Below are positions 17,692-40,007 of a stretch of 64,000 nt of DNA, piece after piece (the stretch's first letter is position 1; each line of letters opens with the position of its first letter). Source of the DNA: Psammoneis japonica (lineage: Eukaryota); NCBI GenBank assembly GCA_008632985.1, contig QPGO01000031.1, positions 1 through 64,000 on the forward strand, read 5' to 3'. Position numbers and translations under genes: made by a program. The notes beneath the pieces are model-generated. The model made no database searches. It had not been told where the DNA came from and saw nothing but the letters and a program-made list of their open reading frames with translations.

Positions 17692-17988
17692 CATCAGAGT
17701 GCATGAAATGTTAAAAATGTGTAGATTTGCACAATGACAATTTGTCAAAACATTGCAAAAAATTGTTGTCATGCAATGAAAGGCCAACCTCTGGTTGCAA
17801 GTTTGCTGCACCAATGTTGCAACAACTCATTGAGAATCATGCATGCCATTTTTCACCATGTCCACATCACCACATCTGCCTCCACCTTGTTGCCACATGC
17901 CAGTGCGTGATTGCATTGCCACACAATCCTTGGTTTGTTGATTTTCACAAACATTGTTTTAAACAAGAAAAGCATTTCATCGGTTGAG

Positions 17989-19292: not shown

Positions 19293-19816
19293 TCTTGATC
19301 TTTTCACAGCAACAATGAGAGGAGTGTTGCTGTTCGACAGTGCAACCGTCGTTTGGGTTGTGTTGAGACAGCCAGCCACTCTGTTTTTCTCTACAAAACA
19401 TTGAACAAATCATTGTCAGTGACATTGAAATTTGAAAATGCATTTGTGCACAACAACGAACAGTCCAACTTGCTTTTAGATGTGGCTGTCATTGCGTTTC
19501 AACGGAGACAACACCCATGAGAATCATCCAAATCTGGAAGATGATGCAATGTTTGCCGATTTCCCGCCATTTTTTGCGTGTTGTTCTTCTTTTCCCTTCT
19601 CATCCACAAGACAAGGACGACAAGTGTGAGTCTTGATGAAGGCCCTGTCAATGTTGTCTGACCAACAATGGATGGAAACCCTCTTCTCTGTCCCGGGTGT
19701 GGCAAAAGTTTTTTGCAACAGCCTGCCATTGGAGATGCTCAACAACGTGTTGCTCAGTTGCCCAAGAGTTGCAAACCCAAGATCCAATCCCAGATCAAAG
19801 CAACATTCCTGCCACA

Positions 19817-22800
19817 ATGGAGGGGCCACCCAAAGAAAGCGGTGGTTCTTCCTCTTCATCCTCTGATGATGATGAATCCCATCCGAGGCAATCTGCTCAC
19901 AGCAGATTCCCAAGATCTTCAACGAGTGATCCAAGCAGCAGCCCCTTGTTCCCCTCCCTGGATGACGCACCGCACGGAATGGACGACATGTCCTCCATTT
20001 CATCAAACCACAGCATGCATGGAGTTGAACTTTTGGCAATGAACGATTTGGATGTTGGCGGTGGTCAATCCTTTGCTGCAGTGTTGGACGTGACAATGGA
20101 GGAGGAAGAGGACATTCACGATGAGGATCAACGTTTGGGGATCAGGCATCACGCTCCAGAAGAAGAGGCCTTGGCTTCTGCTCCCTCTTTGACAAATCTT
20201 GACGGAGCTTGTGTAGAGTTGTGCAAGAAGCTCATGGACACACGTGGTGCTCCCCTGGAATTGCACGACTGCATTGTTGATTTCATTGAGAGGCACACTG
20301 GGAACAGCAACGTGCAGCTTGGTGCAGTTCTGCCAAGGAGAAAAGAGTTGATGCACACCTCAACCAAGCATTTCCCCCTTCCACCCAGCGAGTCTATTTT
20401 TCCTGTCACTCTAGAAACCAAAAATTTCAAAACCGGTTTGCCAAAACAAGTGTCAGTGCCAAGATGGGATTTCACAAAGGTTTGGGAACAGTTTTCACTT
20501 GATCCTCACCTGTGGTGCAGCAGAGAGAATGTGGCCGATCCAGACAATCCTTTTGGGAAGTACAAAGCGAAGGGACCGGATGACAAGTGCCTTTTGGCGG
20601 GTGAGTGGTGCAGGCGCAGTTACGAAGAACAGATGACTGACCCGGAGAAACAATTTCTCGAGCGCAATGTCATTCACCTCGACAAGACTGGCAGGACACA
20701 AGGGATGGGATCACATCGCGGAGAACCAGTGATCATGACCTCTGCGCATGTTGCCTTCAACAAATGGTCAGATGAGAGTGTCTGGAAACCAATTGGTTGT
20801 CTCCCTGATTTGGAAAAGATGTCGTCATCTGCGGCAAAGAATCTCTCAAACAATCACAAGGCGGAGAAGGGACGCTCGTTGAGAGACTGCCACACTTGCT
20901 TGCATGTCATTTTGGAGCCACTTTTGGAAGTCATGAGAAAAGGAGGCATGAAAACATGCGTGCGACAAGGGGATGAGATGCGATGCCTCCACGTAATCCC
21001 ACTGATCGTTCTGATCACAGGAGACGCAAAAAGTGGCAACTGTCTCGTCGGACGATACGGTGGTCACAACTGTCGTCAACGTTGCTGTCGTTTTTGCCTC
21101 ACTGGCTTCAACAAACTGGACGACCCATGGATTGAATGCAAGTTCATCCGAGGACTGGATCTCCAACAAGTGCAAACTAAGGCCAACGACGACAACAGAT
21201 CAGACCAAGAAAGGAAGCACTGGTTGGGCATCTTGCATCACCTTGAGCAACACAACGTGCCTGCCAACTGTCTTTTTGAGGCGGACTTTGGTGCACAACC
21301 ATGTGGTGTCACCCTTGCGACAGCAAGCAACATGATGCATCTCTTTGAAAATGGCACCTTGAAAAGGGTGATCAATTCATTTGTAGACAGCATGACACCT
21401 GTGGTCGCAAGTGAGGTGGACAGCACAGTGGAAAGGATTTTCAGCAATCACCGGTAAACTTGCAAAGCATCCTTCTTGCTGACAAACTTCAAAGGAGGAG
21501 AAATGTCGTGTGCCTTCCTCAACTCTCACCACTGGGCTGGAATGGCTTTTGTTTTCTACCTTCTCCTGTTGACCAGCGAGGGACGAAACGCATGTAGTCA
21601 TGCTTCCTTGACGAGGACGCAGACAAACCCATTGTTCCAGAGAATCGCAAGACACCCAAAGCAAACTTTGAGAGTTGCTGCCAACCCAGTGAGCACTTGG
21701 ACTCTGACAATGAAAGGTTGGAGGAGTCCAAAGAGGGTGACTGGGACGAAAATGAGGATGAGAAAGAGGAGAGTGAGGCAGAGGATGGTGACGACAACCA
21801 AAAAAAGAAAAAATGCAAGGGAAAAAGACTTGACTGCAGCGTCCGGCAATTCATTCAATTGCTCGAGGACCTTCTTGTCTTCCATGCATGGTGCAGGCCA
21901 GGCGATCCACCCATCGCAAGCACAACTCCCAGTTCATCCATTCAGAAAATAAACAAGAAAATCCGTCTCCTCATTGACCGGATGGTGCAATTCGTCCCGT
22001 GAACAGAAGGACACGGGTGGAAGCTTCAAAAGCTTCATGAAACACTCCATCTCCCAGTGTTTCTTTGTTGTTGCCAACATGCAATGAACTTTGACGCAGG
22101 CTTGGGGGAGTGTCTCTTGAAAGACTTTTTCAAGCTGCCATCATCTGCCGCACAACAACGCAACCTCGACAGTTTTCTGAAGCAGGTCGTGTCGTGCATG
22201 GAGGACCAAATGAGGCTCAACACCGCAATTTCAGCTGACAGTTGGATTTTGCCAACTGGGAAAAAGGAAACATCAAGAGTCAGGACGGACAATCACACAC
22301 TGGGTGGAAGTGCATTCACTCTTGCCTGCAACCAAGGGATCGGCGCTGTGACGTTTGAGTGGAACAGCTTGCATGCTCGTTGCCAAGTTCATCCTGTGTT
22401 GCCAAACTTCATGTCGGAAAAGTGGGAGGATTGTGTTGGTGAAGACAGTGAAAATGCACATCTGACTTGTAAGACAGAGTTTTGCAATGCAAATGGGAGG
22501 GATGCGCACCGTGCGCACCCCAACCACAAAAGCGAAGGCCCATGGCATGACTTTGCCTGTGGTGTGACCTTTGGCACACGAAAGGGCGATCAACAGTTTC
22601 CTTCCCGTTTGCTGTGTTTCTTTGAACAGGAAGACAAAACATCAATTTTTGCAGTGGTCCATCCAACTGCTTGTCAAGCTGACCAGAGAACTGTGAGTCA
22701 ATGGTGTCAGCATGCAGACTTGGTCAGTCGCTGGCAGCTTGATCACAAACGAAACAACTGGCTTTCAACACCTGAGAAGACTCAGCACTCACCTGAGTTG

Positions 22801-22983
22801 TGGGTTGTCCCTGTCGAAGCAATTGGGGACAATGTTTTGGTTTGTGAAGAATGTCCAGGAGTGGCAGAAGCGCAAGAAAAGGCCCCATTTGTTTGGGCCA
22901 CACAGGACAGAAGGAAGTGTTGGTCAGATTTGTTTCTAAAACAGGTGGGACGCTTGTGTCAATCCATCATTCACTCACAGTGA
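19817..22983 (+). pseudogene. Plavaka-type transposase (degenerate)
   Basis: IHLDKT...GEP...WKPIGCLP...LITGDAK...CRFC...MMHLFENG...GWKLQKLHE...NFDAG.GE...HRAHPNHKSEGPWHDFA. Frameshifts present and a probable CGA>TGA stop at 22000. Confidence 0.75.
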
Positions 22984-24138
22984 TTTCCTGGCTCTTTCTT
23001 GCAAACATGATGAATTTGATCCTTTCAGAATTGGCAAAGTCATTGTGGCACACGTGAAGCAGTGCAGTGCGAGCACCTTCCATTGCTTTTGTTCTGAAGT
23101 CTTCTTCTGAAACTCCAAGACAAGCTTCTTCCTGATCGGAAGGCTTTCCCAACCACCGTTCTCGCTGTTCTTGGGTTGCAAGGTTGCGCTTGCAAAGAAT
23201 GTGCTCGCACGGCTCTTTGCAGCATCATTGTCCATTGTGCACACGTCGAACACAGCCAACAATTTCTTCCATTGTTTGACAACCTGGAAGAAGGTTGCAA
23301 GAGCAAAGGGAATCACTGTGTCCCCCCCTTCTCCGTTTTTGGAGAGCAAGGCCCGAAGATCAATTAGATTCTGGAAAAATTGAGTCGTCCCAAAATGAGA
23401 ATCGCACCACTCTCCATCTGGCATCCAGCAGCAGTCCAACATGATTTGGTCGAACCCATGATCATCGAAATCAACAATTTTCTCAAACTTCTGCTTGACT
23501 CTCTTGACGAAATCTCTTGCTTTCACATTGCAATTTAAGTGCAGATCAGGATGGCCATCTTGGAGAGAAACTGTTGGAACGACGTTTGTGATTGTTTTGT
23601 CAGTTTCCTCAAATGCCATTGCGCACGCCTCGTCTCGCCTGTGTTGGTCGGACGACACTGAGGCCACCCCCTTCTCAGAGCATGATTCTTGAGAAGACAG
23701 ATGCCTTGCATTGAGCGGACGGGTCATCCCCAACCACAGCACATGGTGTGTTTCCCCGTTGGTTTCGTCACTTGCAAAACAATCTCCCAAGTCGCTGTGG
23801 TCCTCTTCACCCTCAGAGCAATGTGCAACTTGGTTGTGCTCATCGTCAACAGGCTCTTCGCTTTTGTCCTCTTCACCCATGCAAGCAGTTGGAAGTTCAC
23901 TTGTTTTCTCGTCAATTGACTCCTCCTTGCAATCGTCACTTTTGTTCATTGCGAATGACAACAAATCACCGGCGGCCTTCTTCCTGTTAGAACGAGAATT
24001 CAATGTGACAATGTCAGTAAAATCAGACAAAAAACAAATGTGATTGCCATGAAAAAGTGACCTCTCTTTGCCGTTCCAGTTCGGCTCGAACTTCATCAAT
24101 CGACACGAATGGGACTGGCTCCCATTCACACCTTCCAA
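22975..24138 (-). pseudogene. Cargo ORF of unknown function, with a possible methyltransferase-like motif
   Basis: Long ORF with VLWLG and FDQIMLDCCWMP (probably DYYW before TpA mutation); family not recognised. Confidence 0.4.
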
Positions 24139-26280
24139 ACCACTTGATCATTGATTGCCCATCAGAGAACAAGAGCAATGGATGCTGTCCATGACAAAAG
24201 ACATCGCAGATTCCCATCTTTTCACGAGCGACACTCAGGTCACACAGCAAAGACTCTGGACCATTCTTTCCATGGTCTTCCAAATCAAAATCACCCTCCA
24301 TCCGTTCCAAGAGTAAATTGCACTCCTCCACCGGCACCTTCATTTCCTCCATTTGCTTTGCCGCTCCCAACTTGGCTGCCGGATAGACAAGATTACGAAG
24401 GTCAGGGTGAGCATGGATCCCTGTGCCACACAGCATCAACATCTGTGTAGAGTTCATTGATCTGAACTCTCCACAATCAGCGCCTGTGTGATCCCATGTT
24501 TGGACCACGGTTTTGAACACATCCTCGATCGCCTTGTGGTCAAACGTTGGCTTGCCAACATTGTCATTGATCCAGTCCATGACAACAACCAGTCCGCCAA
24601 CAAGCAAGTCCATCAAACCGTCAAGTTTTGTCCTGCACTCTGCCACATGAACCTCCTCAAAATCGAGTCCCGGGCTCTGCATGCGTCGGTCATTGCGATC
24701 CCCCGCAATGCTGCCGAACAGCCTCGCAGCTTCTCTGAAGCAATGAAGGACACAATTGCCAGCCACGAAAGGATGCTTCACAGCATCTGTGTTGCACAAC
24801 AAGCAGCAAAAACGGGAGAATCCGGTTTGACACCCAGCCACAATGGCATGACGAAAGCAATCGTGTGCACCAACCTCATCGAGGTTGTCGATGATTGCCG
24901 AACAACCGCGCAAGAAATTAAAGTCCTTCACGATGGCAAACGGAAGACATTTCCTCGGCATGACAATGACGGGGTGCTCAACTGTGTCGGACAGAAGATT
25001 TGGCTTGCCAATTTCCTCTTCCGCCCACACAGAGTGATGGTCAAGGAAAAAATCTTTGATGTTTCTGTGGGCTGGCTTGCCCGACGAAGGACGATGAGGG
25101 CCACGGTGTCTCATCATTTCTGCAGCATGTGACAGATCAAGTTTTGTGAAATGACCATGCACACGCAATCGGAACTCGGCACACCCATGCACTGAACTGA
25201 CACAGTTTCCAGCATTGCCTTTGGATGCAGTGACAACCTTCAACGACCAAGAGCGACCACCAGCGTCTCCCAGTGACGAGCAAAGAGCACCAGTCTTGGT
25301 GCACCCATCCATGTCACAATCCTCTTTGTCAATGTGTGGCTCGGTGTTCGAACCAACGGATTTTTCGCCGGACGACGAGATGCACTTCACTTGAATTTCC
25401 ACGCCTTCCCTTCTAATGTGCTTGGCTCCAACCATCTTGTGGAGCTCAGCGCGAAAAGACTGTCACGGTGCGGGTCATGGAAGGAACGCATTTCTTTCAA
25501 AGCAACAAGATTGATTTCGTCCTCGCAGAGTTGCGCAGCGTCCAAGATTGAGGCCATCATTGGCTGCACATCCTTTGGAAGCTTCTCCCACTTGTCCCTG
25601 CCAAAGATGGCACCAGGCTTGTGAGCAGGTCCCACTTCAGCTAACTCACCATCTGCGACTTTGTAATTCTGGCCACAACAACCAAAACAGATCCAACAGC
25701 ACAACTTGCATTCTGGTCCATCCCTTTTTTCGTTCGGCTCGCCATGTTCCAACACTGCACGGAGCATTGATGACACACTGAATCGCAATCCAAAAAAGTG
25801 TTTCTGATGCATCTTGTCCATGTGTGCAAATGAGTGACCACGTCGGAAAAATGAGAGGTTGACTGGGTCGGGCAAGCAATCGCAACCATCGATTCTTGCG
25901 TCAGATCATTGGGAGCTACGCCGTTTTCAAATCCATGCACAAACTTGCGGAGGTGATTCACCAAGTGGAAATCAGAGATGCTGCAGAACAACTGGTGCTT
26001 GACACAGTTCCCCTTGAAGGAACCGGAAATGGGGGTTTCCTCAAAGACGACAAGGTGAGAATGTTGTGACTTCACCTCACCCGGAATCGCAAACAGAGAT
26101 GGTTCAGGAAACACTTTCACAAGCTCTTCTTTTGTGAAATTGTCTGGCGGAGGAGGAGGTGACTGACAAGTTGCACCAAGGGTTGGCCACTTTGTTCGGG
26201 AATGTTCAAATTGTTCCTTGAGAGTCAGCACATCTTGGAGAATCAGCGATTCGTTCTGAGAAACATCAGAAGGTTCGCCA
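24023..26280 (-). pseudogene. Cargo ORF(s) of unknown function (frameshifted)
   Basis: Overlapping minus-strand ORFs 25641-26387, 25387-25875 and 24023-25435 with globular-protein-like composition; no recognisable family. Confidence 0.4.
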
Positions 26281-26479
26281 TCTTTGGGGTTTTTGAGACT
26301 GGGGCTTGAGGAGCAAAGGGAGGCGGCTAAAGAGGTGGCAAGAAGAACAGAAGAATTAGAGATGAGAAGAGGAGGACAAACAATCAATCAAACAACATGG
26401 TGGATTCATGCCATTTGGATTTTTTTGTTTCCGAGCATTTTTCATAATGGGGATGGAGTTGCATTGCCGATTTCTTTCT

Positions 26480-27520
26480 TTTTGTGCTGAGTGGCAAAGT
26501 CACAGAAGCCTGGCTTTCCACACAGCCTCAAAACGATCCCTTGCAGCCTTGCTTTTGCCGGAATTGTCAGCGGCAGAAACCACACGATCAATTTTCACAC
26601 ATCTTAAAAGAGTCTCATCGACATGTGTTGCACACATTTGTTCTCACTCGACATCGAGCATCGCCAGTCGCACAGGCTTTTCCCAAGAATTTTTGTGTTG
26701 GCGGAACAACGACTTTACGAATTCAGGGAAGGACATGGGGCATTCGTCTTTGGTTGTCTCACAGTGACCAAGAGCCAGGAAATTCTCCAAAAAGTTGATG
26801 CAAGTCGATGTCTCATCACATTCGCCGAACAGGGAGCAAAGCCAATGACCGCAATCACCATTCCTTTCAGGTGCGTGCGGTGGAATCTTGTCATGAAGAA
26901 CAAAAAAGCCAATGTGAAGGCATTGTGCGTGACGCAAAACCTTCCCTTCAAAACTTCTCAGCTTGATGTGCTTGACAAGTGGCTCTCCCTTTGGGTCGCA
27001 CAATCCGGGATCATGGAGAAGCTTGCACAACATGGAAATCTTTGCCATCATGTTGGTTGTGATGTCTGTTGATTTTGCCTTGTCGCCGACGACTTTCACA
27101 TCCTCTGCTTTGGGAGCACGGCGACACTCCAACGCATGAGGATGTTTGGCGCCTTGACTGGAATGACTCCATCCTTTTGCGGAAAGAAAGTGCAGCAAGC
27201 TCTTGTGCCCAAGTTCCTTTGCAACAATGCGGTTCACAGCCATTGGTTCTACAAAAAAATGAGGTCTGCCCTTTGACTTTTGCCACACATGGGCAAGCGC
27301 GATCCAATTCGGAGAGGGATCATGAGTGTGATCACGGTGGAACTGAACCTTGGATTTCACCGTCTCGATTGTCGCTTTGACACGGCTCCGCTCGTTGCTG
27401 TTGATCACTCCAAAACCATTGGCAAAGAGAGATTCAAATGCGGCCTCCTTGAGGCAGGAACCATTGTTGTCTTGCGACAGAGAGGCGACCGACAGGTCAC
27501 GCGGCGCCATGGTTGCTGTT
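26480..27520 (-). pseudogene. Cargo ORF of unknown function
   Basis: Protein-like part of ORF 26644-27732 (MAPRDLS...FANGFGVI...); boundaries approximate. Confidence 0.35.
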
Positions 27521-28558
27521 CCAACACCAAAAAATCTGGTTTCTGCAGAAATGTGCCAGAGTGGTGCATGGGAGAAGTTGCATGCGCGCCTGGTGGGATT
27601 TGGAGTTTTGGGCACAAAAACCTGCCAGACGTGTGTGCAACTTCTCCCAGGGAAATCCTGCATGAGATTGTGCCGGGAAAGGGCAACGTGGAGTGTGGAA
27701 TTGATGGAAGAAAATGTTGTGCGAAACAGCATCAGGAGAAAGGGTGCATGTGCCGGAAAACAACATGGATTTCTACATGCGCGTTAAGGTGCGTGAAGAA
27801 CACGTGGGTGCCTTCAAGTGACGCATGCGAACAATCATAAAGAAAGATTTGGAAATGGAGATGGCACAGAGAGAAGTCAGAAACATGGATCCAAAACAAA
27901 GTGACACACAACAGAAAAAAAAACAACAAGAGACGGCAACGGGATTGATGAAAAAGAAGGATTCAGATGGAAAGATGCCGGAGACGGTGAAAACAGGCGG
28001 CGCCAAGACGAAGAAGGAAGAGAAAAATGGGACGGGCAAAATGAAGAAAGAGAAAAAGAAGCCAATGACATGACGTCAAGAGGGGAGCAGCGATGCGATT
28101 TGGCATTTCAAGGGACCTCTTCCTCTGATGATGTTCACCCAAATGCAAGAAATGCAGTGTGGCTTTTTTGGAATGGTGACAAGGAAACATCCAATGCGGC
28201 AGTGGCGCATTTGAAATTCTTGCAAGAGAGCGGACAAGACATGTGAATGAAGAGGATGATGCGGATGACTGGGCAAATTGGAGCACAGTTGTTGATTGAA
28301 CAATCAGCGCACACTTCACATGATGAAAATTGCATTGCATGCAATTGCAATGTTTGGCTTGTCGTCAAAGATCATCAGTTGTTGTGAAAAAGGCAGAGCA
28401 CAAAAATTAAAAAACATCTGTGTTCAAACATGAAGAATGGCAGGAGATTGACAATTGACCAAATGACAAAAACTGTCATGTGCAGACAAGTGAGTTTTAC
28501 AACACAGCAATGTGTTTTTATCATGTGTGCAGACATTGCGACATCGTGCACTCTGATG

Positions 28559-30080
28559 TGGCATGTTTCCCAGACAGTGTCTGCCCCACAGTTCGACAAG
28601 GGCCTTCTTGCTCCCTTTTGCTGAGAACGGGCAGGTGCACTCAAAAACCAGCCCCATCAGTGTGCTCCATGTGATGACTCGAAATGTGGAGTGCTCAACC
28701 TTAGAGCTGTGCCCTGCAGAGCTTGCAACCTTGTCCTTCCTGTCTGTTTTGGTGGCAAAATCCTTGCCGTCAGCCACTGCAGCCACATTCTTGAGCCCCA
28801 GTCATTTGTGCGATGCTGGTTCTGTCTTGGATGAGAACTCCTTGTCGATTCGGGGAACTGGCTCATGTGCAACCCGACTTCCCCAATCAAAGGTGCCCAT
28901 TCTGCAACAACACATGAAACATTTGTTTGGCTTGTGTTGAAACAGTCTTTCAATTCAACCTCGTTGATGTTGGTTTCAAACCAGCAGTGGGCAATGAGGC
29001 ATTGCTCAAATTCGGACAGATTGGAATCAAGCAACTCGGATGGGCCAAGTGGCTCGTGCTTCAAGTTGTACATTGCCCAAACAAAAGCCTTTGTTTCTGC
29101 CCATGATCCAATCCCAAAGAGCTTGAGTGCCTTGTGTGGGTTTGCTTCATGCCATTCGTCACTTGCAATTGACACTCGGTTGACTCCAGCCATCTCGCTC
29201 TTCAGCATTTCCATGGGATCCTGCTGGTCTCTTTCTGCAATCTCTTCTGCTTGTTTCAAAACTGCAGCTTGTAAATTTGCTTTTTCCTCTTTAACAAATC
29301 GCAGTTGGTTTCTGAGTTGAAGCATCTGCTCCGCGGCGGTTTCGGGGCTGTTGTGGCATGACTTTGCAAGGCTTGAGCAAATGAAGTCTCCACTGTCTTG
29401 ATTCCTTGTTGCTGCAGCCGGTGTTTGAGCTTGCGGCATTGCTGCTTCCATTGTGCCCCACATCTCCAAGTCAAACTTAACTGCCTTCATGTCTTCTGTT
29501 GCTTCGGCAACAGTGCAGCTGGGTGCCACAAGGCATGCACCACAATGCTCGTCGGCGGCTGTGTGCCCTCTTGCTCCTGGCATGTTCTCTTTCACACATT
29601 CCTTTGATGCTGTCTGAGGTGACATGAAGCCCCTTTCATTGTCTTTTGCTTGAATCAGAATCTTGGGGTGGAAGTGATGAAGAGCAGTGCATCGCCTGAT
29701 CTGGGCGGGGTGGCTGTTCCCATTTCGTGTCTTTCTCTTCTTTGATGCCTCCTTCCAATTGTCACAGTTTTCAAAGGCGTGAGCACTTTTGAGAGCCGTG
29801 AGATGTGTGCGAAAGTGCGTTGCTCTCTTCTCCTTCAATGCAGACGTTGCCACCCTTCCTTTCTTCCCTTCATTGGTTGGTGTTGGAACAGCGATGAAGG
29901 TGCCACGTCGGTCACCGAGCTCTTGGAACACCTTCGTGAGCTCAGTGCACTCTTTTGAGCCACAGATGCAGCCATGCTGTTGCTTCTTTTTCCCAGGAGC
30001 CAAATGGGAATCGCATGGAACATGATGGAAACGACATGGTGCCGTGGCGGCATCTCTCGTTGCCGACATGAGGGCATCAT
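28559..30080 (-). pseudogene. N-terminal part of the same transposase (THAP-like Zn finger, coiled coil, HTH, first catalytic Asp)
   Basis: CICGSKEC...CTALHHFHP (THAP-like); LSEFEQCLIA...ELKDCFNTSQTNVSCVVAEW (HTH_Tnp_4-like); ADGKD...SSKVEHST. Joins in frame to 17691 after removing the insertion: ELWGRHCLGNMP-IEMLVLTDKGF. Confidence 0.75.
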
Positions 30081-30771
30081 GGTCAGCACAACGGAGCTCA
30101 GCAAAACAGACATTTTTGCTTTGGCTGCAGATTTTCTTGCGGTTGCGCGTTCCACCTCAAAAGTCCGCGCGAATGCTGCTTGTTGATTCTCGAACATTTG
30201 CAGTGACATTTTTAAAAATGGCCACTCCCACGGAGCGTTGCACTTTTCAGTCTGGCCAGCAAATTTTTCCACGCAATTTCTGCATGCCACGTTCAATTCT
30301 ACGCAGCCTTGGCACTTGCACAAAGCACCTCACGATGCATTGCTCCCCGCTGATCTCACCATGGCACCGATGCATTGTCGTTTGTTGTGCAGCACTGAAC
30401 AGGATTTGGTCAACTTCCGTGCAACGGGGCTCACATTAAAGTGGCAAATCACAGGAGCAAAATGTGACTGCCAAGGGAGAGAATCTTTAAGTGTCAAAAC
30501 TGAGCTGACTTTGCAGAAGCAGAGGCCATCAAATTTGCTGCATGCGGATCCCCACCTTTCCGTCTTCATTGAGCATGATGACGGAACAGGCCGCTGGGTG
30601 CATTTTGCCATTCTTGTTGAAATGACATGCTTCCACAATCATGCGATCGCCCAAGTGCAACACACAGCTGCTGATGAGAGCTGATGCATCACGGCGACGT
30701 GTTGCAGCCTTTAAATGTCACAAAGGGCGTGACAAAAACAACCTTTTGTCTGCATGCATGCTGCACCGTGA

Positions 30772-30835
30772 ATTCACAGCGGAGTGGTTCATCGCAACCA
30801 TTGGGCAGGAGGCCAGGGGTTCGAAACCCTGAGTG
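30772..30835 (+). other. tRNA-derived segment with Pol III A-box/B-box-like motifs inside the TRIM
   Basis: CAGCGGAGTGGTTCATCGC (D-arm/A-box like) and GGTTCGAAACC at 30818-30828 (T-loop/B box). Anticodon arm and acceptor stem are not intact. Confidence 0.55.
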
Positions 30836-30918
30836 GGGGAGTTGTCTGCAGCAACGTTGATCACTGTCGAACGCGTAAAACTCTGTGCAGTTCTGCACGT
30901 TCCTTCGCACGTGCCCAC

Positions 30919-31350
30919 TGCCCCATGCATGTGCCAGGCGCTGAAAAAGAAGATGTGTCACGACTTTGTCGTTGTGAAAATTGTGAGCCAGTTTAGAGCA
31001 GAGAAAATGGGATCGTGCGAACAGGGAATCTTGCCAAATCCCTGTTCGTTCGCATTTGGATCATGTTAAATCGATCGTGCGTTCGCATCATGGATCGTGC
31101 GAATCAAGCCATCATGCGCCATGCACGAGTGATGTCATCGTGTGGAATCACGCTGCCATCGTGGGCCAGACGACGGGCTGGTGTGCTTCACATGGACGCT
31201 CTCTTGGCATCCTTCTGGATTTGCCTGAGACCTGGAGCCACGCCCTCCTGTGGTCGTGCTTCCCAGGTGCATGTCAACAACACTGCGTTGCCACGTACAA
31301 GAGGCTCATGCACGGTCTCGCCGTGTTGTCCAGCAGCGAGGCATGCTGCA
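30919..31350 (-). repeat. 3' LTR of Gypsy
   Basis: Aligns without gaps to 35776-36207. Confidence 0.95.
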
Positions 31351-31389
31351 CACTCCCCCATGATCAGGGCCGTTAAGTGACAGGATGTC

Positions 31390-34300
31390 TTGCTGGTGAT
31401 GGGGCACAATCTGCCGTAGATTGCACGCATCTGTCAGCGCTCCATTCTGGACACGCAACGTGCCGTTGTCACATGCACGGACAACTCTGGCGGGTCCTGC
31501 ATGGCTGTCAGAACCGCATTTAGAGGATTGTTCCTGTTTGACAAGCACCAATTGCCCTGCGGTGTGTTGATGCTCCTTGCGTTTCTGATTTTCACGCTTG
31601 TTGTTTAAGTGGACAAGCTTCTGCTTTCTGGCTTCTATGTGCTTCCACTTGGCACTGTGGGCAATGGATAAAACCGTGTCGCGTCCGAAGACCAATTGCA
31701 TGGGACTTGCATGCGTGGTCGTGTGTGCCGTAGCTCTAACAGCGAAGGCCACTGCGGAGAGGATGCCACTCCATGGGTCATCTTCGTCCAGTTCCATGTC
31801 CTGTGCTGAAAAGGAACGCACCATGTCACCAAGTGTCTGGTGCACACGTTCCACTGTGGCATTTGCCTGTGGATTCCGTTCACTTGTGGGTTTCTTCAAA
31901 ATCCCACAGTCATTTTTAATCATCTGGCTAAATTCTGCCATAAATTCTGTCCCGCGGTCATAAACCACCTGGGTTGGCCACGGACATCTGCACAGCCACG
32001 TTTGTTCCACGACGTTTGCTGCGATTCTGCGTGTTTCGTAGATGCTTCTTTAATCTCGAACCACCCAGTTGCTGGGTCAATCATTGTGACTGCCCACAAT
32101 TGCAAGGTGTCCTTTCCGCGTCTTTGAATTTTATGTGGCCCTGTCATGTCCATGCATGGAGTCTCCCATGGAATTATCTCTGCGACCTTTTCTGGTGGCT
32201 TCCCATGATGCTGCATTCGGCGTTTTGTCTTCTGGCATCGATCGCACTCAACGCATGTAGAATGCACCGTAGACCTCACACTGGGCCAACAGAAGTGCTG
32301 GGCAACAGATGTTTTCTGCACGTGTCTCACCTGGATGACGCAGTGTCTCGTGGTGCCATTCAGTTAGCGGAACCTGCAATGACTGTGGTGCTGCGATTTT
32401 GTCCTTATGACAGATTAACTGTCGTGATGACCCTCCCCCACGACACGCGCGAATGGAGCAGTCGGACGAGTCCTCAGCTCTTGAGAGTGGGCGCTTGTCC
32501 TTTTGTTGTGCTTTTTGAATGCGCTTGAAGCTAACAGGCAGAGACAGCTCATCTTGTGCATCTGCATTAAAAGCTTCATGCAAAGGACGACTCGATGGAG
32601 TGTCTTTTACATCCGGATTAGCCTCGGAAGGCAAGCTGGGTGCCAGTCAAAAGGCGACTGAGAGCGTCAGCGACTGGGTTGTGGGTGCCCTTAACATGGC
32701 GTAATTCGGGACCGCATTCTTCGCACATTGACCACCAGCGCATGACGCGCTCGGCATTGAATGCTTTGTGCACAAGATTTTTATGATCAGCACACATGAT
32801 CACACGATGACCAAGGAGAATCGTTCGAAATTCTTTCAACGTCTCCACAATGGCGAGCAATTCTCTCTCCGTTGTTGCACAATTTAATTGCGCACTGTTG
32901 AGCTTTCTGCTGTAAAAGCGACAGGTTTATCATCTTGGGACACAACTGCTCCCAATTGACATTTAGAGGCATCGGCACGCACCTCAAAGGGTTTGTTAAA
33001 ATCAGGATGTGACAACAAAACATCATCCGATGTTGTCCGTTTAACGGTTTCGAACGCCTCATCTTCAACGGACGTCCACTCCCACTTGACAGTCTTGCTT
33101 ACGAGTCGTGTTAGTGGAGCCAAGATTTCAGAATGTCCAATCCACGTGTCGCGGCAGCAGCTCACCATGCCAACAAATGAACGCAGGTCGCGTTCATTGG
33201 TTGGGGTCACGATTCGCTTGATGGCGTCGACTTTATCAGGCATTGGTCGCACTCCGTCTCTGTTGACCAGACAACCCAAGCATTCTAATTGGGTTTGACA
33301 GAAGTGAGATTTAGTTGCGTTAACTTTTAGTCCTGCTTTCTGGACCCTCAACAAAACTTCTTCAAGTTTGTTGAGGTGATCTTCACAGGTGCCTTTCGTC
33401 ACGACGAGAAGGTCATCTAAGTACGTTCGAACGAACGATGGATCTTCAAATAAGCCTGACATGCGTTCTTGGAAAATGTCTGGCGAATTACATAATCCCA
33501 TGGGCAACACCTGCATCTCATACTTACCCCACGGGAAGATGAGCGTGCAGAGCTTCTTACTATCAGCATCCAATCGGATATGATAATAGCCCATGTTTAA
33601 ATCCAGCGATGTAGCCCACATAAAGCCTTCGAGCTTAAGTAGCATATCTTGGATATGAGGAATCGCATAAGGCAATCGCTTAATCCGTTTATTCAGCTCT
33701 CTCAAATCATTAATAAATCGTACCGTTAAATCTTTCTTCGGTATGATAAATGATGGAGCTGCCCATTGGGATCGGTTAACGCGTTTGAGAACACCGATAC
33801 GTACTAGGCGTTCTACTTCTTTACGTAGCGTAGCTTCGTACGCACGAGGTACTTTATACGGACGAGCGTGGTATGGTTCTACACCCTCCTTGAGCTGGAT
33901 ATGGTAGGGTTCTCCCTTCCATTCTCCTAATGTCCCATCAAATAAGGACTCATGGCGTTTCAATAGAGCCAAAAGGTCGTTTTGTTTAACTATAGAAAGT
34001 CCTATTGCTCCTCGCGTTATGTCCTCGAGGCAGGCCGGCGCGTACTTAGCGTCTAAAATACGCGAAATCCGGGTGGTTTCCGAAGATAAGGATTCTGGAT
34101 CTTGAAGATAGAAGGAGGTTTCCACCGTAGCATCTACGTGCCTCATTGGTACTTCTCCAAACACTCTATCATCTGTTTAGAGAAGACAATATCAATGCCT
34201 TGCGTCTCCAGAATGTCACGTCCAATAATCATATCGTACTTGCCCAACTTTCCGTTGTGTACGTGGACGGTATATTTAAGTTCTGCAGTTTCGGATAATT

Positions 34301-34637
34301 CTGGTAACCGAAATTTAACGGTACAGTCGTTAGACGTACTAAACGAGCCTGCTACCGTAGTCCAGTTTGTCTCAGCCGTTGAATGGCTTCGCAGACGTTT
34401 ACAGTATCGACTATCGAGTAGAGTACTGCTGGCGCCACTATCTAGTAGTGCCTTAATAGTTTGAGTCTTGCCCTTGCCATGTTTAGCATTCATAGCTAAA
34501 AACAAGATTGGAGTAAGATGAGTCTTTTTAACTCGTTTACGGGATTGGCCTACAACACGTGTACGATGGTAATTCAGTTGTTCATTTATACATTCATCTA
34601 ATGTATTAAAACTACCTGTATCGTGTCGGCCCCCTTC
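31390..34637 (-). pseudogene. pol: Gypsy pol (protease, reverse transcriptase, RNase H, integrase), frameshifted
   Basis: ALLDSGAS and IIGRD (PR); LDLNMGYYHI, LPMGL and YLDD (RT); DAS and DHKNL..ADALSR (RH); H..HPG..C..C, IDPATGW, DRGTEF and VERVH (IN). Confidence 0.92.
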
Positions 34638-35681
34638 TCAGGCGTCCGAATCTTCGGAATCACTTAAGTTGAGGTCGCGGAAGTGATCAAGCTCCTCCTC
34701 GCGGGCCTTGCGCTTTTTCTGAGCGTTGGCAAAGAACTCCTCGACCTTCGATCCGATGAGAGCATTAATGTCTTCCTCATTCCGAGGTTTTGCATTAGGC
34801 TTGCCGCCTCCGTTGTTGGAATGTCCAGTCTTGACACGTTTCACGTGGTGCTTGAGCTGACGGCAATCCTCCGCATGATGTCCACAGTTGGTCCCATGTG
34901 GCATGCACGACTTCTGGGTGTTCCGTTGGGTCATGATCAATGACTCAGGATTGTCCGTTCTACGTCCCCGCTCACGTGGAACCTTAGCATGTTGGTCCTG
35001 GTTGCCTTCGGTGAGCTCGACCTGCTCGATGCGCTCGCAGAACTGCACAAATTCGGCGATGGCATGCGCCAATGGGTCAAAATTCTGCAGCGTCATGAAC
35101 TTCTGCCATGCGTTCGGCACACCACACTCGAACATGTCGCATGGTTCGTCATTGGGTGATGGTGCCGGTGTTTCTCCATCCTCCGTCGCGGGTGGAAACT
35201 GAGAGATGTGGCCGTTAATTTCAACAGCCCTCGCGACGCAGTCACGAGCAGAAACCTCTGCGGGCTTGCGCATGAATCGCCGCAGATGACGCTTCTGCAA
35301 TGGTGCCGCCCTGTGTGGGAAGATGCTTTCCTTTAGCTTTGCGATGCATGCTGCATGCGTGGCATTGGTTTGGGATGCCTGCTTGTCAGCGGCATTGTTG
35401 AATGACGTCAGAGCATCGCCCTGTGGCAGGTCACGCATGAGGGCAAATTTCGCTGGCCCGGTCGCAATGTTTTGTCCTTCGTGCACGCGATCCACATTGC
35501 GCAGAAAGATTGGGAGTGTCTCGCATGTAGCCGCAGAAAGGTGCGGAGTGCCCATCTCGTGCGTTGGACTGTCCGGATCAGCAGGGTTGTTGCGCAGCTT
35601 GAACGTCTGGCACTCGCCCTGCTGCAGCTCTTTCTTCTCCGGCCGTGCGAACGGAATCGGCGGCTTGTTCCGCTTCTTCAT
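34638..35681 (-). pseudogene. gag: Gypsy gag
   Basis: ORF directly downstream of the 5' LTR; Zn-knuckle-like CMPHGTNCGHHAEDC near the C-terminus. Confidence 0.8.
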
Positions 35682-35775
35682 GGTCGTTTTAAGATTTGTT
35701 GGTCCCACCAACATTTCGTAGTTTCGTTTCTGCAGATTTCGTCACCTCGCACAACATGCGGGAGCAATGTTGCTG

Positions 35776-36207
35776 TGCCCTGTGCATGCACCAGGCGCTG
35801 AAAAAGAAGATGTGTTGTGACTTTGTCGTTGTGAAAATTGCGAGCTAGTTTGGAGCAGAGAAAATGGGATCGTGCAAACAGGGAATCTTGCCAAATCCCT
35901 GTTCGTTCGCATTTGGATCGCATTAGATCGATCGTGCGTTCGCATCATGGATCGTGCGAATCAAGCCATCACGCGCCATGCACGAGTGACGTCATCGTGT
36001 GGAATCACGCTGCCATCGTGGGCCAGACGACGGGCCAGTGTGCTTCACACGGATGCTCTCTTGGCATCCTTCTGGAATTGCCCAAGACCCAGAGCCACGC
36101 CCTCCTGTGGTCATGCTTCCCAGGTGCGTGTCAACAACACTGCGTTGCCACGCACAAGAGGCTCATGCACGGTCTCGCCGTGTTGTCCAGCAGCGAGGCA
36201 TGCTGCA
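35776..36207 (-). repeat. 5' LTR of Gypsy
   Basis: Aligns without gaps to 30919-31350. Confidence 0.95.
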
Positions 36208-37553
36208 CCACACTGTTCCGCCAAAACCGTGCAGTGTCAGTGCACGTCAGCAAAGAGCCGCATGGACGTGTGACACATGGGGAGGAGTGCAACACACAGC
36301 TGCTGACAAGAGTTGATGCATCACGGCGACATGTTGCAGCCTTTAAATGTCACAAAGGGCGTGACAAAAACAACCTTTTGTCTGCATGCATGCTGCACAA
36401 GGCTCCCAGACAACTGTTTTCAAAAGACTGGGAATCCAAAATGAAGCAGACAAGACAAATGGTTGAGCACTCTTGGAGAGCCAACAAGAGCAGATCTCCA
36501 AAGCACCAATCAGAAATCAGGTGCTTCTTGGAAAAGCTTCCAGAAGGCACTTGCCAAAAGCAGACACAAGCACAAATGAAATTTGTCAAAAAGCACGTTG
36601 CACCTCCTTTCCAACAACCAGCTCCACACCGAAAAGAACCTTTCGTGTGCTGCCTTCTGCCTTCAAAGAACTCGGTGCAAGAACATCCTGCACAGGCAAT
36701 GATTTGGTCGGTCTGGCATCCCTTGGAACAGGTGCATGTGCTGTTGAAACCTTCAGCAGGACGTGGGAAAAGAACATGAAGGAGTGTCTCATCCATCAAT
36801 CCAGAATGAGCCCGAGTCTCAGCGCGCTCGGGTTGGTTGAGCGTCGTTTCCAGGCATTCCAAATCCAGATGCAACAAAGAGGAGTGTTGCATCAACTTGA
36901 AAGACTTCAACTTCACTCTTCTGTCCAATGTCATTGACACATCAAAAGATGAGGCAAAACAAGGGGTGAGAGCTGACACCACAAGAGCGAAAGAAGTCAA
37001 AGGAACGACAAGTCACAAAACAAAGAACGAACATGCCACCACACAATGTGACGACCACAAACGCATGTTGCCAGGACGACAACTCAACTCACACTCTGCC
37101 ACCCATTGCTCGTGCTTGTGTCATGACAACAAAATGATGTGCATTGGAGCACAAACCAAAAAAAAGGCAAAACAAAAGAAACAAAGTCAAAGGATGACAA
37201 AAAAAACGAGTCATCACACCACTTCAGTTGACGACACATTTTGCAACACGCACGGCACTTGTCGAGACTGGGCCAATGCTTGCACATGACATGGACAAAG
37301 AACATAAATCTTGTGCACAACTCACCTCATAAAAAGACGCAACGACGATGGTGCAAACGATGCAACAGCGCCATGGTGTCTGCCAGAAAAATGTGCAGAG
37401 GCTGGTGCAAAAAAGTCGTTCTCCACTTTTTGATTTTTGCCAACTGGCCAGATTGGCTCAGCACTGAAAAATGTGATGATCTGTCGGAGGTCTTTCTCTT
37501 CCTCTTCTTCCCATGCCAACTGCAGACCTCCCAAGCTGGGAGTGAAAAATGAC

Positions 37554-39511
37554 CACCCCTGAGCAGGAGCCTCCATGCAAACATTTGGTCGTGTGAATCA
37601 CGCCGAGGGGCGAATCTGAAAAAGGAGTTGGGATGCTTGCATGTTGTCTGCGTCACATCAGATGTGTTTTGAAGATGAATTTTTGTTGTGCTCAGGTGTG
37701 AAATGCCATGGAAATGAATTTGCACAGAGCCCCCCACACCACGACAACTCTGTGCACCGTCGAGCCATTCCATCGTCTTTGCAAGCTGCCGCCAACACGG
37801 CCCATGACAGAGGAGTGCCACTTGAAGCCACTGCTCCCACATCTTTTGCAAGACAACCATGCCGCCGAAGAACAAGAGCCACAGGAAGCAGCGCCAGCCC
37901 AAAAAAGAGCAAGTCAAAAGGCAAGTGGCTTGCCAGAAGCAAAAGAGAGAGTCAACAATCGCTGAGTGTGAAAAAGAAAGGAAGAACTCCAAATGGCGGT
38001 CCAGAAGGACTTCTCGTGCCACTGCAGTGTCTCTTGTTGCTGCATCCCTTACAAGCAGTGACAACCGGAAAAGCAATCTGTCATCTGTGAATGTTGCCAT
38101 TGCATTGTGCATGGAGCATGTGATGAGTCTGGCACTCAATTCATTGTGGGCCATTTGGAATGCTGCCGGTGCAAGAAAGCACTTTAGGAGAAACAATGTG
38201 GAGCAATGATGCATCTTGGTGCAGAACCCAACAAGACTGCACAAAGCACAAATGGCTCCCCTTGGGGATGGGTGATTCGGAAAGTCTCTTGATGGAACAG
38301 TCAAGCAAGGAGCTTGCACAGCCATGACTTGTGAGGTGCAGGACGCAAGAAGACTCCTCCACAGAACTCAACCAATTCCAGGTGAGAAAAGGAACCAATG
38401 AATTTCATCAGTGTTGCACGTGAGACTTGGGAAATGATTTGAAGCTGGCACACTTTGCTCACTTTCTAGAATGCAACGACAGATGAAAAGACTCATTGAC
38501 CGTCACTGTGACAGTCTTCAGAAGTGCCGGCAGCAGCCACGCAATGTGTTCAAGCCACATGAGTGGAGCTCGCTGGGTGCTGGGGATGCCACCAACCATG
38601 GCATTGTTGTCCAGATCCAGGAACCACAAATGCACCGTTGTGATCCCCTTTGTTCCCACAACATGCTTGCACATGGACAACCATTGAGAGCACTTGCTCA
38701 TTGCCATCCAGCGGTCACTTGATGCACCAATTCTTGCACAAACCTCAAATTGCTTCTGCACTTGATCTGGAGAGTCTTTGAGGGTTTGCATCGGCGCATT
38801 TGTTGAGTGCATTGGCTGCCCCCTGGTGCGACAATTGATGGAGCACAATGTTGTCAGTTCTGGTTGCTGTGTCCACGGAAACCCTCTGAGATTTTCATTG
38901 CTGACCCAAAGCTTTGCCGCACAGTGCAGCGAATCTGCTTGCGATGTGAGACAAGACAATTGTCCATGATGAAATTGTCACAGTTCATGACGCAGATGCA
39001 TCCACAGCATTTTCTTGCATCACATTGAGTGAGCCACATGTTGCCTTTAGGGAGAGATGAACAATGAATGAGAAATGTGGCACAAACACTCTTGCAAGAA
39101 GCGTTCTCATCATCACCCGACTCACTGAATCTCACCAACTCAACACTTTGCAAAATCCGATTGATCACCCTCAAACCAGTGGCATGCTGTGCTCACACAG
39201 AACTTGTGTCAATGGTCTGTGCCTCTGCTTTCTAAGGAAGAGGGAGACCACAGTCACAACAGCCTGCTGTCAAGTCAATGGCATCAATGAACCACGATGT
39301 TTGTGCGACGAGATTTGGGTTCTGAGTGGCGAAATGGCTTGACAATGCACAGATTGTCGTGGTGCAGGGGGGTTCTTGGAAATTCCAAAGAGACTGAAAT
39401 GTGCATGCCAAATCCTTGTGTCTGGCTGGGCCCTGCATTGCGAGCGTGCAAGTGCTGTGTCGGCCTGCACACCCGAACCAACTGACACGAGAACCGTCCT
39501 GCTCAGGGGTG
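37554..39511. mobile_element. ~2-kb TIR DNA element with a 9-bp TSD (Mutator-like TSD length), degenerate internal ORF on +
   Basis: 15-bp perfect TIR CACCCCTGAGCAGGA / TCCTGCTCAGGGGTG; TSD AAAAATGAC at 37545-37553 and 39512-39520. Internal fragments include GDAT and a CxxH-like CCVH. Confidence 0.75.
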
Positions 39512-39827
39512 AAAAATGACCGTTTTGAGGAACGCAGATTTTTCACCCTTCAACCACCGGACTTGGCTCCTTTACGTCACAAACACAGCAAATGAAGTGA
39601 TTTCAGATGTGGACAATGTCAAATTTGCGTGATTTTGTTTTGGAGCACGCACTCGCTGAAAATCTGGGGGACCCCTTTTTGCAATTTCGAAAGTTCAATG
39701 TTGACTTTCAACACCGGGTTTTTTGCAAGCTGCATCTGTGAACAGAGAGGAACTAAATCTCTCAACCTTCAACAATGAAGGTTGTCATGAATTGCTGTCG
39801 CAAATGGAGCAACAACACCACACCCTT

Positions 39828-40007
39828 GGAGCAAATCTCCACCGGTGGATGGAGATTTGCTCCCAACAAGCAAATGCACGTGGTGCACTTTACGCAGATT
39901 CTACACAACATGACATTTTTGTGCCATGTTCATTGCATTGTCATAAAAGTGCACGACACGTCACAAATCCATGAGCAGAGCAAATCTCCACCCGTGGAGA
40001 TTTGCTC
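39828..40007. repeat. Two copies of a palindrome GAGCAAATCTCCA-N-TGGAGATTTGCTC
   Basis: 14-bp perfect stems at 39828-39863 and 39978-40007. Confidence 0.85.

Follow-up and report, generated by a model that had tools for sequence, protein, structure and literature searches.

The element described here, a Ty3/gypsy retrotransposon on the minus strand of the window (the whole stretch of 64,000 nucleotides that was analysed), appears to have been rewritten by a DNA-level process that converts TpA to TpG or CpA and that acted after insertion on an element lying in a TA-depleted repeat domain. We give this explanation as a whole a probability of roughly 80%. The data below demonstrate the direction of the change, the dinucleotide targeted, the action on both strands and the timing after insertion; as to the enzyme, the chemistry we infer as most likely is that of an activity of adenine-deaminase type which acts on DNA and is guided to silenced repeat chromatin.

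Structure of the element

The element is bounded by two direct LTRs of 432 bp. The window-left copy (30919..31350, minus strand), which is the 3' LTR, has TG...CA termini and retains 1-2 TA per 200 bp, and the window-right copy (35776..36207, minus strand), the 5' LTR, was identified by its gap-free alignment to the left one. The target-site duplication, CCAC, lies at 30915..30918 and 36208..36211, and four letters fit both sides of the empty-site joint 30914->36208. This joint is found in four contigs from three sequencing runs of one sample (2+1+1), which run from 30914 straight into 36208; these contigs represent paralogous copies of the host repeat in which the site is empty, with a similarity of about 94%.

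Between the LTRs, the domains follow the Ty3/gypsy order gag-PR-RT-RNaseH-INT on the minus strand, with the Pfam matches so ordered. A gag-like ORF of 367 aa (34638..35741), recognized by ORF reading and composition and still open despite the TA stripping, had no match in a Pfam search. It is followed by the aspartyl protease (34143..34637; Pfam RVP, 6e-5, over its cut-off) and by reverse transcriptase and RNase H (32618..34176; RVT_1, 9e-25; RT_RNaseH, 5e-16), with 55-63% identity to homologs among the 120 listed. The integrase region (31306..32363), comprising the zinc-binding domain and the core, has broken frames and is heavily TA-converted; it was delimited by tblastn alignment to 60 full-length pol homologs and by a Pfam Integrase_H2C2 match under the cut-off, and the integrase core of the element did not reach Pfam rve at E<=0.001. 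The full-length homologs carry PF00078, PF17917/17919, PF17921 and PF00665. A G-rich purine run on the minus strand immediately before the LTR (31351..31370) is the putative polypurine-tract region, assigned by position alone.

A tblastn search with 20 pol homologs found no second copy of this lineage in the rest of the window, and a 35-letter degenerate pattern of the LTR had no matches in metagenome contigs. Eleven related elements from metagenomes were available, with TA o/e of 0.68-0.98 throughout. The terminal direct repeats of these contigs were rejected as LTR pairs, since the RT coding match overlaps with them in L008 and L009. In L002-L004, L008 and L009 they are read as circular-assembly overlaps of repeated elements, the overlap with the RT match having been looked at in L008 and L009, and they served solely as between-copy comparisons.

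A spared core between converted arms

Conversion within the element is not uniform. In a core of about 1.2 kb (33418..34620), TA density is as expected, at 13-21 per 200 bp, and the GC content is 0.40-0.47. The first kept conserved Tyr codon of the core is at 33423, TA remains dense up to 34619, and in TA o/e the related metagenome elements are like the core. The left arm (30919..33400) has 1-5 TA per 200 bp against 9-15 expected, with GC 0.45-0.58 and its last converted conserved Tyr codon at 33282. In the right arm (34700..36207), TA falls to 0-2 per 200 bp from 34801 on, against 8-14 expected, and GC is 0.48-0.61. The core edges are sharp, lying within about 140 bp. The higher GC of the arms fits a change from A:T to G:C and does not fit CpG decay, which lowers GC.

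The element lies in an older, almost fully converted repeat domain, whose left part (15001..30914) shows TA o/e of 0.03-0.11, CG o/e of 0.35-0.77 and CA+TG o/e of 1.4-1.8. Its right part (36212..40000) was recognized by dinucleotide composition, and the low TA values, 0.03-0.11, extend over 15-31 kb and 36-40 kb. Neighbouring genes are spared: the gene-bearing thirds of the window have TA o/e mostly of 0.4-0.9, with two 1-kb bins at 0.31-0.38. The non-element DNA flanking the insertion bears the same signature as the element itself. Within it, the two copies of the host-repeat unit D2 (30654..30766 and 36286..36398, plus strand, partners of each other) show four differences, among them one CA/TG swap and one CA/CG. 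A tRNA-like GGTTCGAAACCC motif at about 30812-30830 gave neither a tRNA prediction nor an Rfam match at E<=1.

Differences between the two LTRs

The LTRs differ at 29 of their 432 aligned positions, by 28 transitions and one transversion. The sequence-only reading of this DNA had proposed that they differ almost only by interconversion of CA, TG, TA and CG, and 27 of the 29 mismatches do fall in pyrimidine-purine (YR) steps, with two elsewhere. The recount agrees with its approximate figures for double CA-vs-TG swaps (seven, at 30924, 30932, 30959, 31064, 31179, 31226 and 31233), for TA versus CA/TG steps (three, at 30989, 30994 and 31296), for the one other transition (31069, TAAAT vs TAGAT) and for the one transversion (31220, T vs A). 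The class of CG versus TG/CA steps also stands, and its number rises from about nine to ten (six CG/TG and four CG/CA). When 28 transitions and one transversion were placed at random on the LTR 20,000 times, swaps averaged 0.35 with a maximum of 4, and mismatches in differing YR steps averaged 15.5 with a maximum of 26.

The first of these tracts, quoted as CCC-CATGCATGTG-CCAGG and CCC-TGTGCATGCA-CCAGG, was found at 30921 and 35778, and the suggested origin from (TA)5 is compatible with the data. Runs of at least five CA/TG steps occur seven times in the 19.7-kb converted domain against once in 34 kb of genic DNA, which is weakly compatible with their being fossil TA microsatellites.

Differences between the LTRs place the mutation after insertion, as had been proposed, and they inflate any age derived from the pair, as had also been anticipated. 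The K2P distance is 0.072 over all sites and 0.010 outside YR steps (two differences in 192 positions), an inflation of roughly 7-fold.

Direction of the change

Judged from coding columns and from other copies of the family, and not from the swap sites themselves, the polarity is TA to CA/TG. At columns where Tyr is conserved in at least 70% of 60 homologs, the core keeps 8 of 9 and the arms 0 of 11, these having become Cys in six cases and His in five (Fisher 7e-5). Over all arm residues, the element has 5 Tyr, 24 Cys and 25 His, where the homologs have 26.0, 7.8 and 17.8, respectively. Codon-level inference over 252 conserved columns of the arms gave 29 TpA->TpG/CpA changes versus 3 CpG losses, and over 187 columns of the core the corresponding numbers were 2 and 1. 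In the arms, 53 TAs survive.

The family-copy comparison used 7274 contigs from sequencing runs aligned to the window, where the compared run may be the assembly's source sample and is not independent proof of each base. It rests on the 40 of 559 variant rows listed, which include no swap site. Of the 14 variant places listed between 34688 and 34973, 10 have TA in contigs of other copies where the window has CA or TG. Rows in the opposite direction, with TA in the window and TG or CA in the others, occur at 32620 (18/18 contigs), 35924 (share 0.94) and 30876 (share 0.60), and at 35946-47 both LTRs have CA where 19 contigs have TG. These rows indicate that part of the variation is an inherited subfamily difference and not a change in situ.

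The changes are almost exclusively A:T->G:C transitions, judging by the share of transitions among the LTR differences (28/29), the TpA changes in the arms, the Tyr columns and the rise in GC. TpA is the dominant target, yet three listed places show CpA/TpG->CpG. Conversion also depends on the 3' neighbour, with TAY favoured and TTAA resistant.

Alternative explanations

The alternative that survives best, though an improbable one, is that the arms and LTRs were patched, or the core restored, by gene conversion or recombination with differently mutated family copies. The 7274 contigs speak for a very abundant family, the narrow core edges are like those of conversion tracts, and same-strand outcomes are clustered (13 runs vs 18.8 expected, P=0.03). 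Nevertheless, the identical 4-bp duplication marks one intact insertion and not an inter-element recombinant. The two differences outside YR steps mean that any donors must have been equally young and have differed by TA conversion alone, and the core is no recent duplicate of a common variant, having at least five private differences from all 23-32 covering contigs. Moreover, this explanation still needs the same TA hypermutation elsewhere.

Ordinary 5-methylcytosine decay, by which swap sites that were CpG at insertion would have turned into TG on one side of the element and into CA on the other, is very unlikely. CpG decay is active nearby, as the CG depletion of the older domain indicates, and among the 40 of 559 variant rows listed the window has CA/TG against CG in nearly all other copies at 32032, 34896 and 36269. 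Furthermore, the CpG-poor relative L009 (CG o/e 0.22) shows two CA/TG swaps between two copies that share no intact CpG. Against it, both LTRs retain 25 CpGs intact and a further 10 are intact in one of them (p=0.167), so decay is far from saturation. A CpG-only model then expects 0.5 swaps where 7 are observed (P(>=7)=1e-6), and its joint best fit is also rejected (G2=12.7, p=4e-4). With 17 ancestral TAs and q=0.90, a TA model yields 7 swaps, 3 single hits and 0.2 intact sites (1 observed). Within the element, CG o/e is about 1 and Arg columns of the arms encoded by CGN are kept in 10 cases and lost in 1; CpG decay cannot account for the change from Tyr to Cys or His at 11/11 arm columns. Thus, neither a CpG derivation of the swaps nor a proportional depletion of CpG, as expected of methyl-CpG decay acting as sole cause, was found. 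Judged on the LTR pair alone, a two-class model may apply, in which extremely hot CpGs exist alongside cold ones. A two-step path CA->CG->TG within one LTR was rejected as giving too few swaps, about 0.2 sites by rough arithmetic from gain (~8%) and loss (~9-17%) frequencies. Since the CpG-only model is rejected and both the coding polarity and the other family copies point to TA->CA/TG, most of the swaps seem better explained as TA-derived than as CG-derived.

An assembly or basecalling artefact, in which a modified dinucleotide is read differently by strand and resolved randomly as CA, TG, TA or CG, is highly improbable. Strand-dependent miscalls at a modified YpR step would leave both positions ambiguous between transition partners, which is the pattern seen. 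On the other hand, contigs of public runs, built independently, show the same CA/TG/TA polymorphisms from copy to copy, the sequencing run contains 46% of the stretch's sampled 31-mers exactly, a TA-normal core with sharp edges inside a single element argues against miscalls, and nearby genes keep TA o/e of about 0.6.

Editing before integration, either A-to-I on the element RNA or deamination of cDNA during reverse transcription, would fit the ADAR/ADAT pattern of A->G with a 5' U/T preference (10.64898/2026.01.13.699255, Discussion) and can practically be dismissed: RNA editing would leave the LTRs identical, whereas they differ in opposite directions at the same sites, and cDNA editing strikes one strand and would not spare a sharp-edged central 1.2 kb, whereas both strands were hit in each arm (Tyr->Cys 6, Tyr->His 5), the changes are neither one-stranded nor shared by both LTRs, and flanking host DNA was converted as well. 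The same observations bear out the view of the sequence-only reading that chromosomal DNA was mutated on both strands and that neither RNA editing nor reverse-transcriptase error was responsible.

Proposed mechanism

According to the explanation preferred here, the retrotransposon would have inserted, with its 4-bp duplication, into a repeat domain already nearly TA-free. A DNA-level process would change A to G at TpA, yielding TpG, or CpA where the hit falls on the other strand. After insertion, about 90% of the TAs in each LTR would have been converted, as well as most of those in the 2.4 kb and 1.5 kb of element sequence next to them, the sharply bounded 1.2-kb core being left untouched. 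The LTRs would have been hit independently, an ancestral TA becoming CA in one and TG in the other at the seven visible swaps; other outcomes would be the same change in both LTRs, which is invisible, or TA against CA/TG (three sites).

A more specific and rather doubtful proposal is that this is a chromatin-directed genome defence of adenine-deaminase type, which would work in discrete, sharp-ended tracts of up to a few kb, often with several hits on the same strand, prefer 5'-TAY and invade a fresh insertion from its silenced flanks.

Relation to known systems

TA-targeted DNA mutation seems so far to have been reported solely in one preprint, on the unrelated alga Bigelowiella natans. There, as far as its Results and Discussion describe, mutation-accumulation lines gave a direct measurement of a TpA->CpA/TpG spectrum, with TpA-restricted hypermutation targeting integrated giant-virus and virophage DNA, a de novo rate about 1000-fold over background that is episodic among lines, and an enrichment of reverse-transcriptase and DDE domains among TpA-poor CDS (Mettrop et al., bioRxiv 10.64898/2026.01.13.699255). 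The signature in the window appears to match this one: in both, the change is near-exclusively A:T->G:C, with TpA as the dominant target in the window, giving TpG or CpA by strand, and foreign or mobile DNA is hit beside normal genes, with a deficit of TpA and a surplus of CpA+TpG. The cases differ in that an LTR retrotransposon and a repeat domain, and not an integrated virus, are targeted here, in that conversion is near saturation (TA o/e 0.03-0.1 vs a Rho of 0.45 in the B. natans NCLDV region), and in that our evidence is comparative and does not come from mutation-accumulation lines. The host also appears to be another, intron-poor eukaryote, as the ORFs of the window run uninterrupted for 900+ codons and B. 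natans averages 8 introns per gene (PMC13746701). Relative to the Results and Discussion of that preprint, the new features are the sharp edges within an element, the bias by 3' neighbour and the probable leak from CpA to CpG.

If the explanation is true, this would be a second eukaryote that rewrites TA to TG/CA specifically in mobile DNA, and an observation from mutation-accumulation in one alga would become a more general candidate for genome defence. Repeat-induced point mutation (RIP), known from Neurospora and other ascomycetes, changes C to T at CpA, creates TpA and lowers GC. The process described here resembles it as a post-integration, DNA-level, dinucleotide-specific source of both-strand transitions that riddles transposons and is domain-like, reaching adjacent DNA. 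Its chemistry is the opposite: TpA is destroyed and GC rises, and the C->T changes at CpA, TpA excess and AT enrichment of RIP were not found, TpA o/e being 0.03-0.1. Unlike in RIP, repetition alone is insufficient, because the equally repeated core was spared. Should the rhizarian B. natans and this intron-poor alga share such a process, it could be an old and widespread counterpart of fungal RIP, of opposite chemistry.

Methyl-CpG deamination likewise acts at a palindromic pyrimidine-purine step, gives TG or CA by strand and operates in this domain too. Its source is CG, however, it lowers GC and it cannot give seven swaps beside 25 intact CpGs. APOBEC editing of vertebrate LTR retrotransposons (PMC4866542) is similarly a deaminase-type DNA editing fossilised in LTR elements. 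It changes C to U on the minus-strand cDNA prior to integration, so that G->A appears strand-specifically, whereas the process here is A->G, on both strands and after insertion.

From LTR pairs, as natural before/after records, one could read the rate, the strand, the length of the tracts and their sequence context, which are the quantities needed for an enzyme search. CA/TG scrambling would confound repeat consensus building and family clustering. In addition, loss of TA destroys TAA/TAG stops and rarely creates a stop, so that it would leave long spurious ORFs, and gene finders would call false ORFs in such stop-poor DNA.

Sites with CG in one LTR

At the ten CG versus TG/CA sites, CpG loss seems to be mixed with CpA->CpG gain. 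Methyl-CpG decay is probably combined there with a leak of the A->G activity onto CpA, giving CpG, which is weaker than its action on TpA. The parallel CpG decay suggested by the sequence-only reading is thus upheld in part: it is seen as CpG loss at 32032, 34896 and 36269, and gain is indicated at other places. Among the variant rows listed, the window has CG against CA in 8/8 contigs at 31954 and in 22/22 at 35188, and the one LTR CG site included, 35990, is TG in 11/11 contigs and in the other LTR; these three places point to CpA->CpG gain. Similarly, 2 of 25 conserved His/Gln/Cys/Trp columns have turned to Arg CGT.

The element and its insertion site

The element at 30919-36207 is a Ty3/gypsy retrotransposon, complete but dead, that lies on the minus strand. 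Its long terminal repeats (LTRs; 30919-31350 and 35776-36207) are 432 bp each, align without gaps and have TG...CA termini, and the sequence shows a 4-bp target-site duplication, CCAC, flanking them at 30915-30918 and 36208-36211. The interior coding order is a gag-like ORF, an aspartyl protease, a reverse transcriptase (RT)/RNase H and an integrase zinc-binding domain, and the RT ORF shares 55-63% identity with at least 120 full-length pol homologs among the matches listed. In contigs assembled from three public runs of one sample, possibly the assembly's own, 30914 is joined straight to 36208, with four letters that fit both sides. These joints represent empty sites in paralogous copies of the host repeat (about 94% alike), which confirms the element boundaries. 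This host repeat is very abundant, with peaks of contig depth at 30654-30918 and 36208-36398. A 113-bp unit of it occurs on each side of the element, and it also contains a tRNA-like GGTTCGAAACCC motif, for which a tRNA search and an Rfam search returned no tRNA and no Rfam family.

Differences between the two LTRs

The LTRs differ at 29 positions, comprising 28 transitions and one transversion. The recount reproduced almost exactly the tally of the sequence-only reading: there are seven double CA/TG differences (swaps, with CA in one LTR and TG in the other), ten sites with CG versus TG/CA, where about nine had been counted, and three with TA versus CA/TG, besides another transition at 31069 and the transversion at 31220. 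The steps alike in both LTRs are 25 CG, 1 TA, 33 CA and 41 TG. Random placement of an equal number of substitutions (20,000 trials) gave a mean of 0.35 swaps and a maximum of 4, and put at most 26 mismatches in differing pyrimidine-purine (YR) steps, versus the 7 and 27 observed. The pattern is real and far beyond chance. It also inflates LTR-based age dating, as had been predicted, by about 7-fold: K2P is 0.072 over all sites versus 0.010 outside YR steps (2 differences in 192 positions).

Direction of the changes

The best explanation, to which we give a probability of about 0.8, is a post-insertion, DNA-level hypermutation of TpA to TpG/CpA, with minor CpG loss and gain. A TA-origin model that starts from about 17 TAs and converts 90% of them in each LTR gives the 7 swaps and 3 single hits, with approximately 0 TAs expected intact in both LTRs and 1 observed. 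The LTR pair is a late, near-saturated stage of conversion, and therefore the swaps outnumber the TA versus CA/TG sites.

On the LTR pair taken alone, the swaps might also derive from CpG decay acting on two classes of CpG, and therefore the polarity was sought outside the pair. Homogeneous CpG decay, a form of the CG origin that the sequence-only reading had set against its own proposal, is rejected on the pair itself: with 25 CpGs that both LTRs retain and 10 that only one retains, p is 0.167 per LTR, which yields 0.5 visible swaps versus 7 (P(≥7) = 1e-6), and the joint fit of all three classes also fails (G2 = 12.7, p = 4e-4).

Regarding base composition, the centre of the element (the core, about 33,418-34,620) has TA at expectation, with 13-21 per 200 bp and a GC of 0.40-0.47, versus 0-5 TA per 200 bp and a GC of 0.45-0.61 (0.48-0.61 right of 34,801) in the arms, which run from the core out to 30919 on one side and 36207 on the other and include the LTRs. 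CG in the arms is near expectation. The higher GC of the arms is what an A:T to G:C change predicts and runs opposite to the expectation of CpG decay. Moreover, 11 related elements from metagenome contigs show a TA o/e of 0.68-0.98 along their length, and therefore the contrast between arms and core is not native to such elements.

Codon columns were compared with 60 homologs aligned to the element by tblastn. Where at least 70% of the homologs carry Tyr, the core retains it in 8 of 9 columns and the arms in none of 11 (Fisher, 7e-5), the 11 arm columns being now Cys (TGY) in six cases and His (CAY) in five; at a conservation of at least 90%, the figures are 7/7 versus 0/9. Over all aligned codons, the arms contain 5 Tyr versus a homolog mean of 26.0, 24 Cys versus 7.8 and 25 His versus 17.8, and the core contains 15 Tyr versus 14.2. 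At the level of codons, 29 changes of TpA to TpG/CpA versus 3 CpG losses can be deduced in 252 conserved columns of the arms, and 2 such changes and 1 CpG loss in 187 conserved columns of the core.

Other family copies were also considered, through 40 of 559 variants, none of them at any of the seven swap sites. Of the 14 variant places listed within 34688-34973, 10 are CA or TG in the window and TA in contigs of other family copies, with TA shares of 0.09-0.95, one of them seen in a single X3 contig only. Part of the variation among the places listed is an inherited subfamily difference: 32620 is TA in the window versus TG in 18/18 contigs, and 35946-47 is CA in both LTRs versus TG in 19 contigs.

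Timing and substrate

Since LTRs are identical at integration, their differences are post-insertion. Several observations indicate that the process acted after integration, on the duplex DNA of the chromosome. The earlier proposal of a both-strand DNA mutation after insertion holds here: the LTRs differ, identical sites were changed in opposite ways between them, and both strands were struck within each arm, with Cys and His outcomes. The intact target-site duplication argues against an inter-element recombinant. cDNA editing is rejected, being one-stranded and not expected to spare a sharply bounded centre, as is RNA editing, which would leave the LTRs identical.

The flanking host repeat carries changes of the same kind as the element: its D2 pair has four differences, including one CA/TG swap and one CA/CG. 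A tandem repeat with a unit of about 216-219 bp lies at 305-739, and in its 64-bp pair (D4, within 305-584) 10/10 differences are in TA/CA/TG steps: six are TA versus CA/TG and two are CA/TG swaps (four bases), with the TAs kept in one unit.

Edges, sequence context and strand

Both core edges (33283-33422 and about 34620-34700) are step-like within about 140 bp, with no gradient. On the left, the changeover falls between the conserved Tyr codon at 33282, the last to be converted, and that at 33423, the first to be kept; 18/18 Tyr-majority columns before 33283 have been converted or have changed in some other way, and those right of 33422 are mostly kept. At the right edge, TA stays dense as far as 34619 and is sparse beyond about 34700.

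The joint count of ATAT, ATAC, ATAG and GTAC is 43 in the core (1.3 kb), 2 in the arms (3.9 kb) and 5 in the old domain (19.7 kb), and that of TTAA and CTAA is 23, 29 and 35, respectively. The TAs that survive best over 15001-40000, compared with the genic parts, are TTAA, CTAA and GTAA. These counts suggest a target preference of TAY > TAG > TAA.

Furthermore, the strands of 37 inferred conversions in the left arm form 13 runs versus 18.8 expected (P = 0.03, shuffling), which hints at strand clustering, with a possible detection bias. Across 31064-31566 (left LTR and adjoining interior), 8 of 9 consecutive inferred conversions are TG on the plus strand, and the right LTR has CA at the LTR sites that read TG in the left; this run hints at one-strand, tract-wise events.

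Sites containing CG

The suggestion that CpG decay acted in parallel stands in part. Among the variants listed, 32032, 34896 and 36269 are CA/TG in the window and CG in almost every other copy, and these sites are CpG losses. The reverse also occurs: the window has CG versus uniform CA or TG at 31954 (8/8 contigs) and 35188 (22/22), and at 35990, one of the ten LTR CG sites, versus TG in 11/11 contigs and in the other LTR. All three are in CAY context and are read as A to G at CpA, because independent CG decay would not leave uniform CA/TG. A weaker CpA to CpG leak of the A to G activity therefore probably contributes, so that CpG gain would accompany the loss. Among conserved His/Gln/Cys/Trp codons, 2/25 became CGT, and 1/11 CGN-type Arg codons became CAT.

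Relation to a known system

The mutation signature of the element matches the one described in a preprint on Bigelowiella natans (10.64898/2026.01.13.699255). In that study, two integrated viral regions gathered 231 mutations over the mutation-accumulation lines, of which 230 were A to G/T to C, each of them at TpA; the rate was about 1000-fold above background, and only some of the lines were affected. An ADAT2-like adenine deaminase is the enzyme put forward by its authors. The words "diatom", "LTR" and "retrotransposon" are absent from its main text, and full-text searches of the literature for hypermutation or depletion of the TpA type, covering transposons, diatoms and LTR elements, yielded no other relevant paper. 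The element adds a new case to a kind of hypermutation described once, in 2026. An enzyme and a targeting signal would lie behind it, both putative. The ORFs of the window, uninterrupted up to 953 codons, differ from the intron-rich genes of B. natans, whose genome averages 8 introns per gene according to a table in PMC13746701, and the window is therefore unlikely to come from that species.

The surrounding domain and a related element

The repeat domain around the element (15-31 kb and 36-40 kb) has o/e values of 0.03-0.11 for TA, 0.35-0.77 for CG and 1.4-1.8 for CA+TG. The gene-bearing thirds of the window have a TA o/e mostly of 0.4-0.9 (0.31-0.38 in two 1-kb bins) and a CG o/e near 1 (0.6-1.2). 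Many long stop-free ORFs, for example of 576, 605, 479 and 499 codons, are found on both strands of 15000-31000 and 36000-38400; in a Pfam search most of them had no match and one was weakly Plavaka-like. TAA/TAG depletion by TA erasure is their likely cause, and gene finders may call false genes in these regions.

A related gypsy element from a metagenome contig (L008, 59% RT identity) has overlapping ends, 1-289 and 5029-5317, which come from two copies and show 13 differences. Eight are TA versus TG/CA, six of these in one direction, and two are CA versus CG, a polymorphism of the same kind as in the element.
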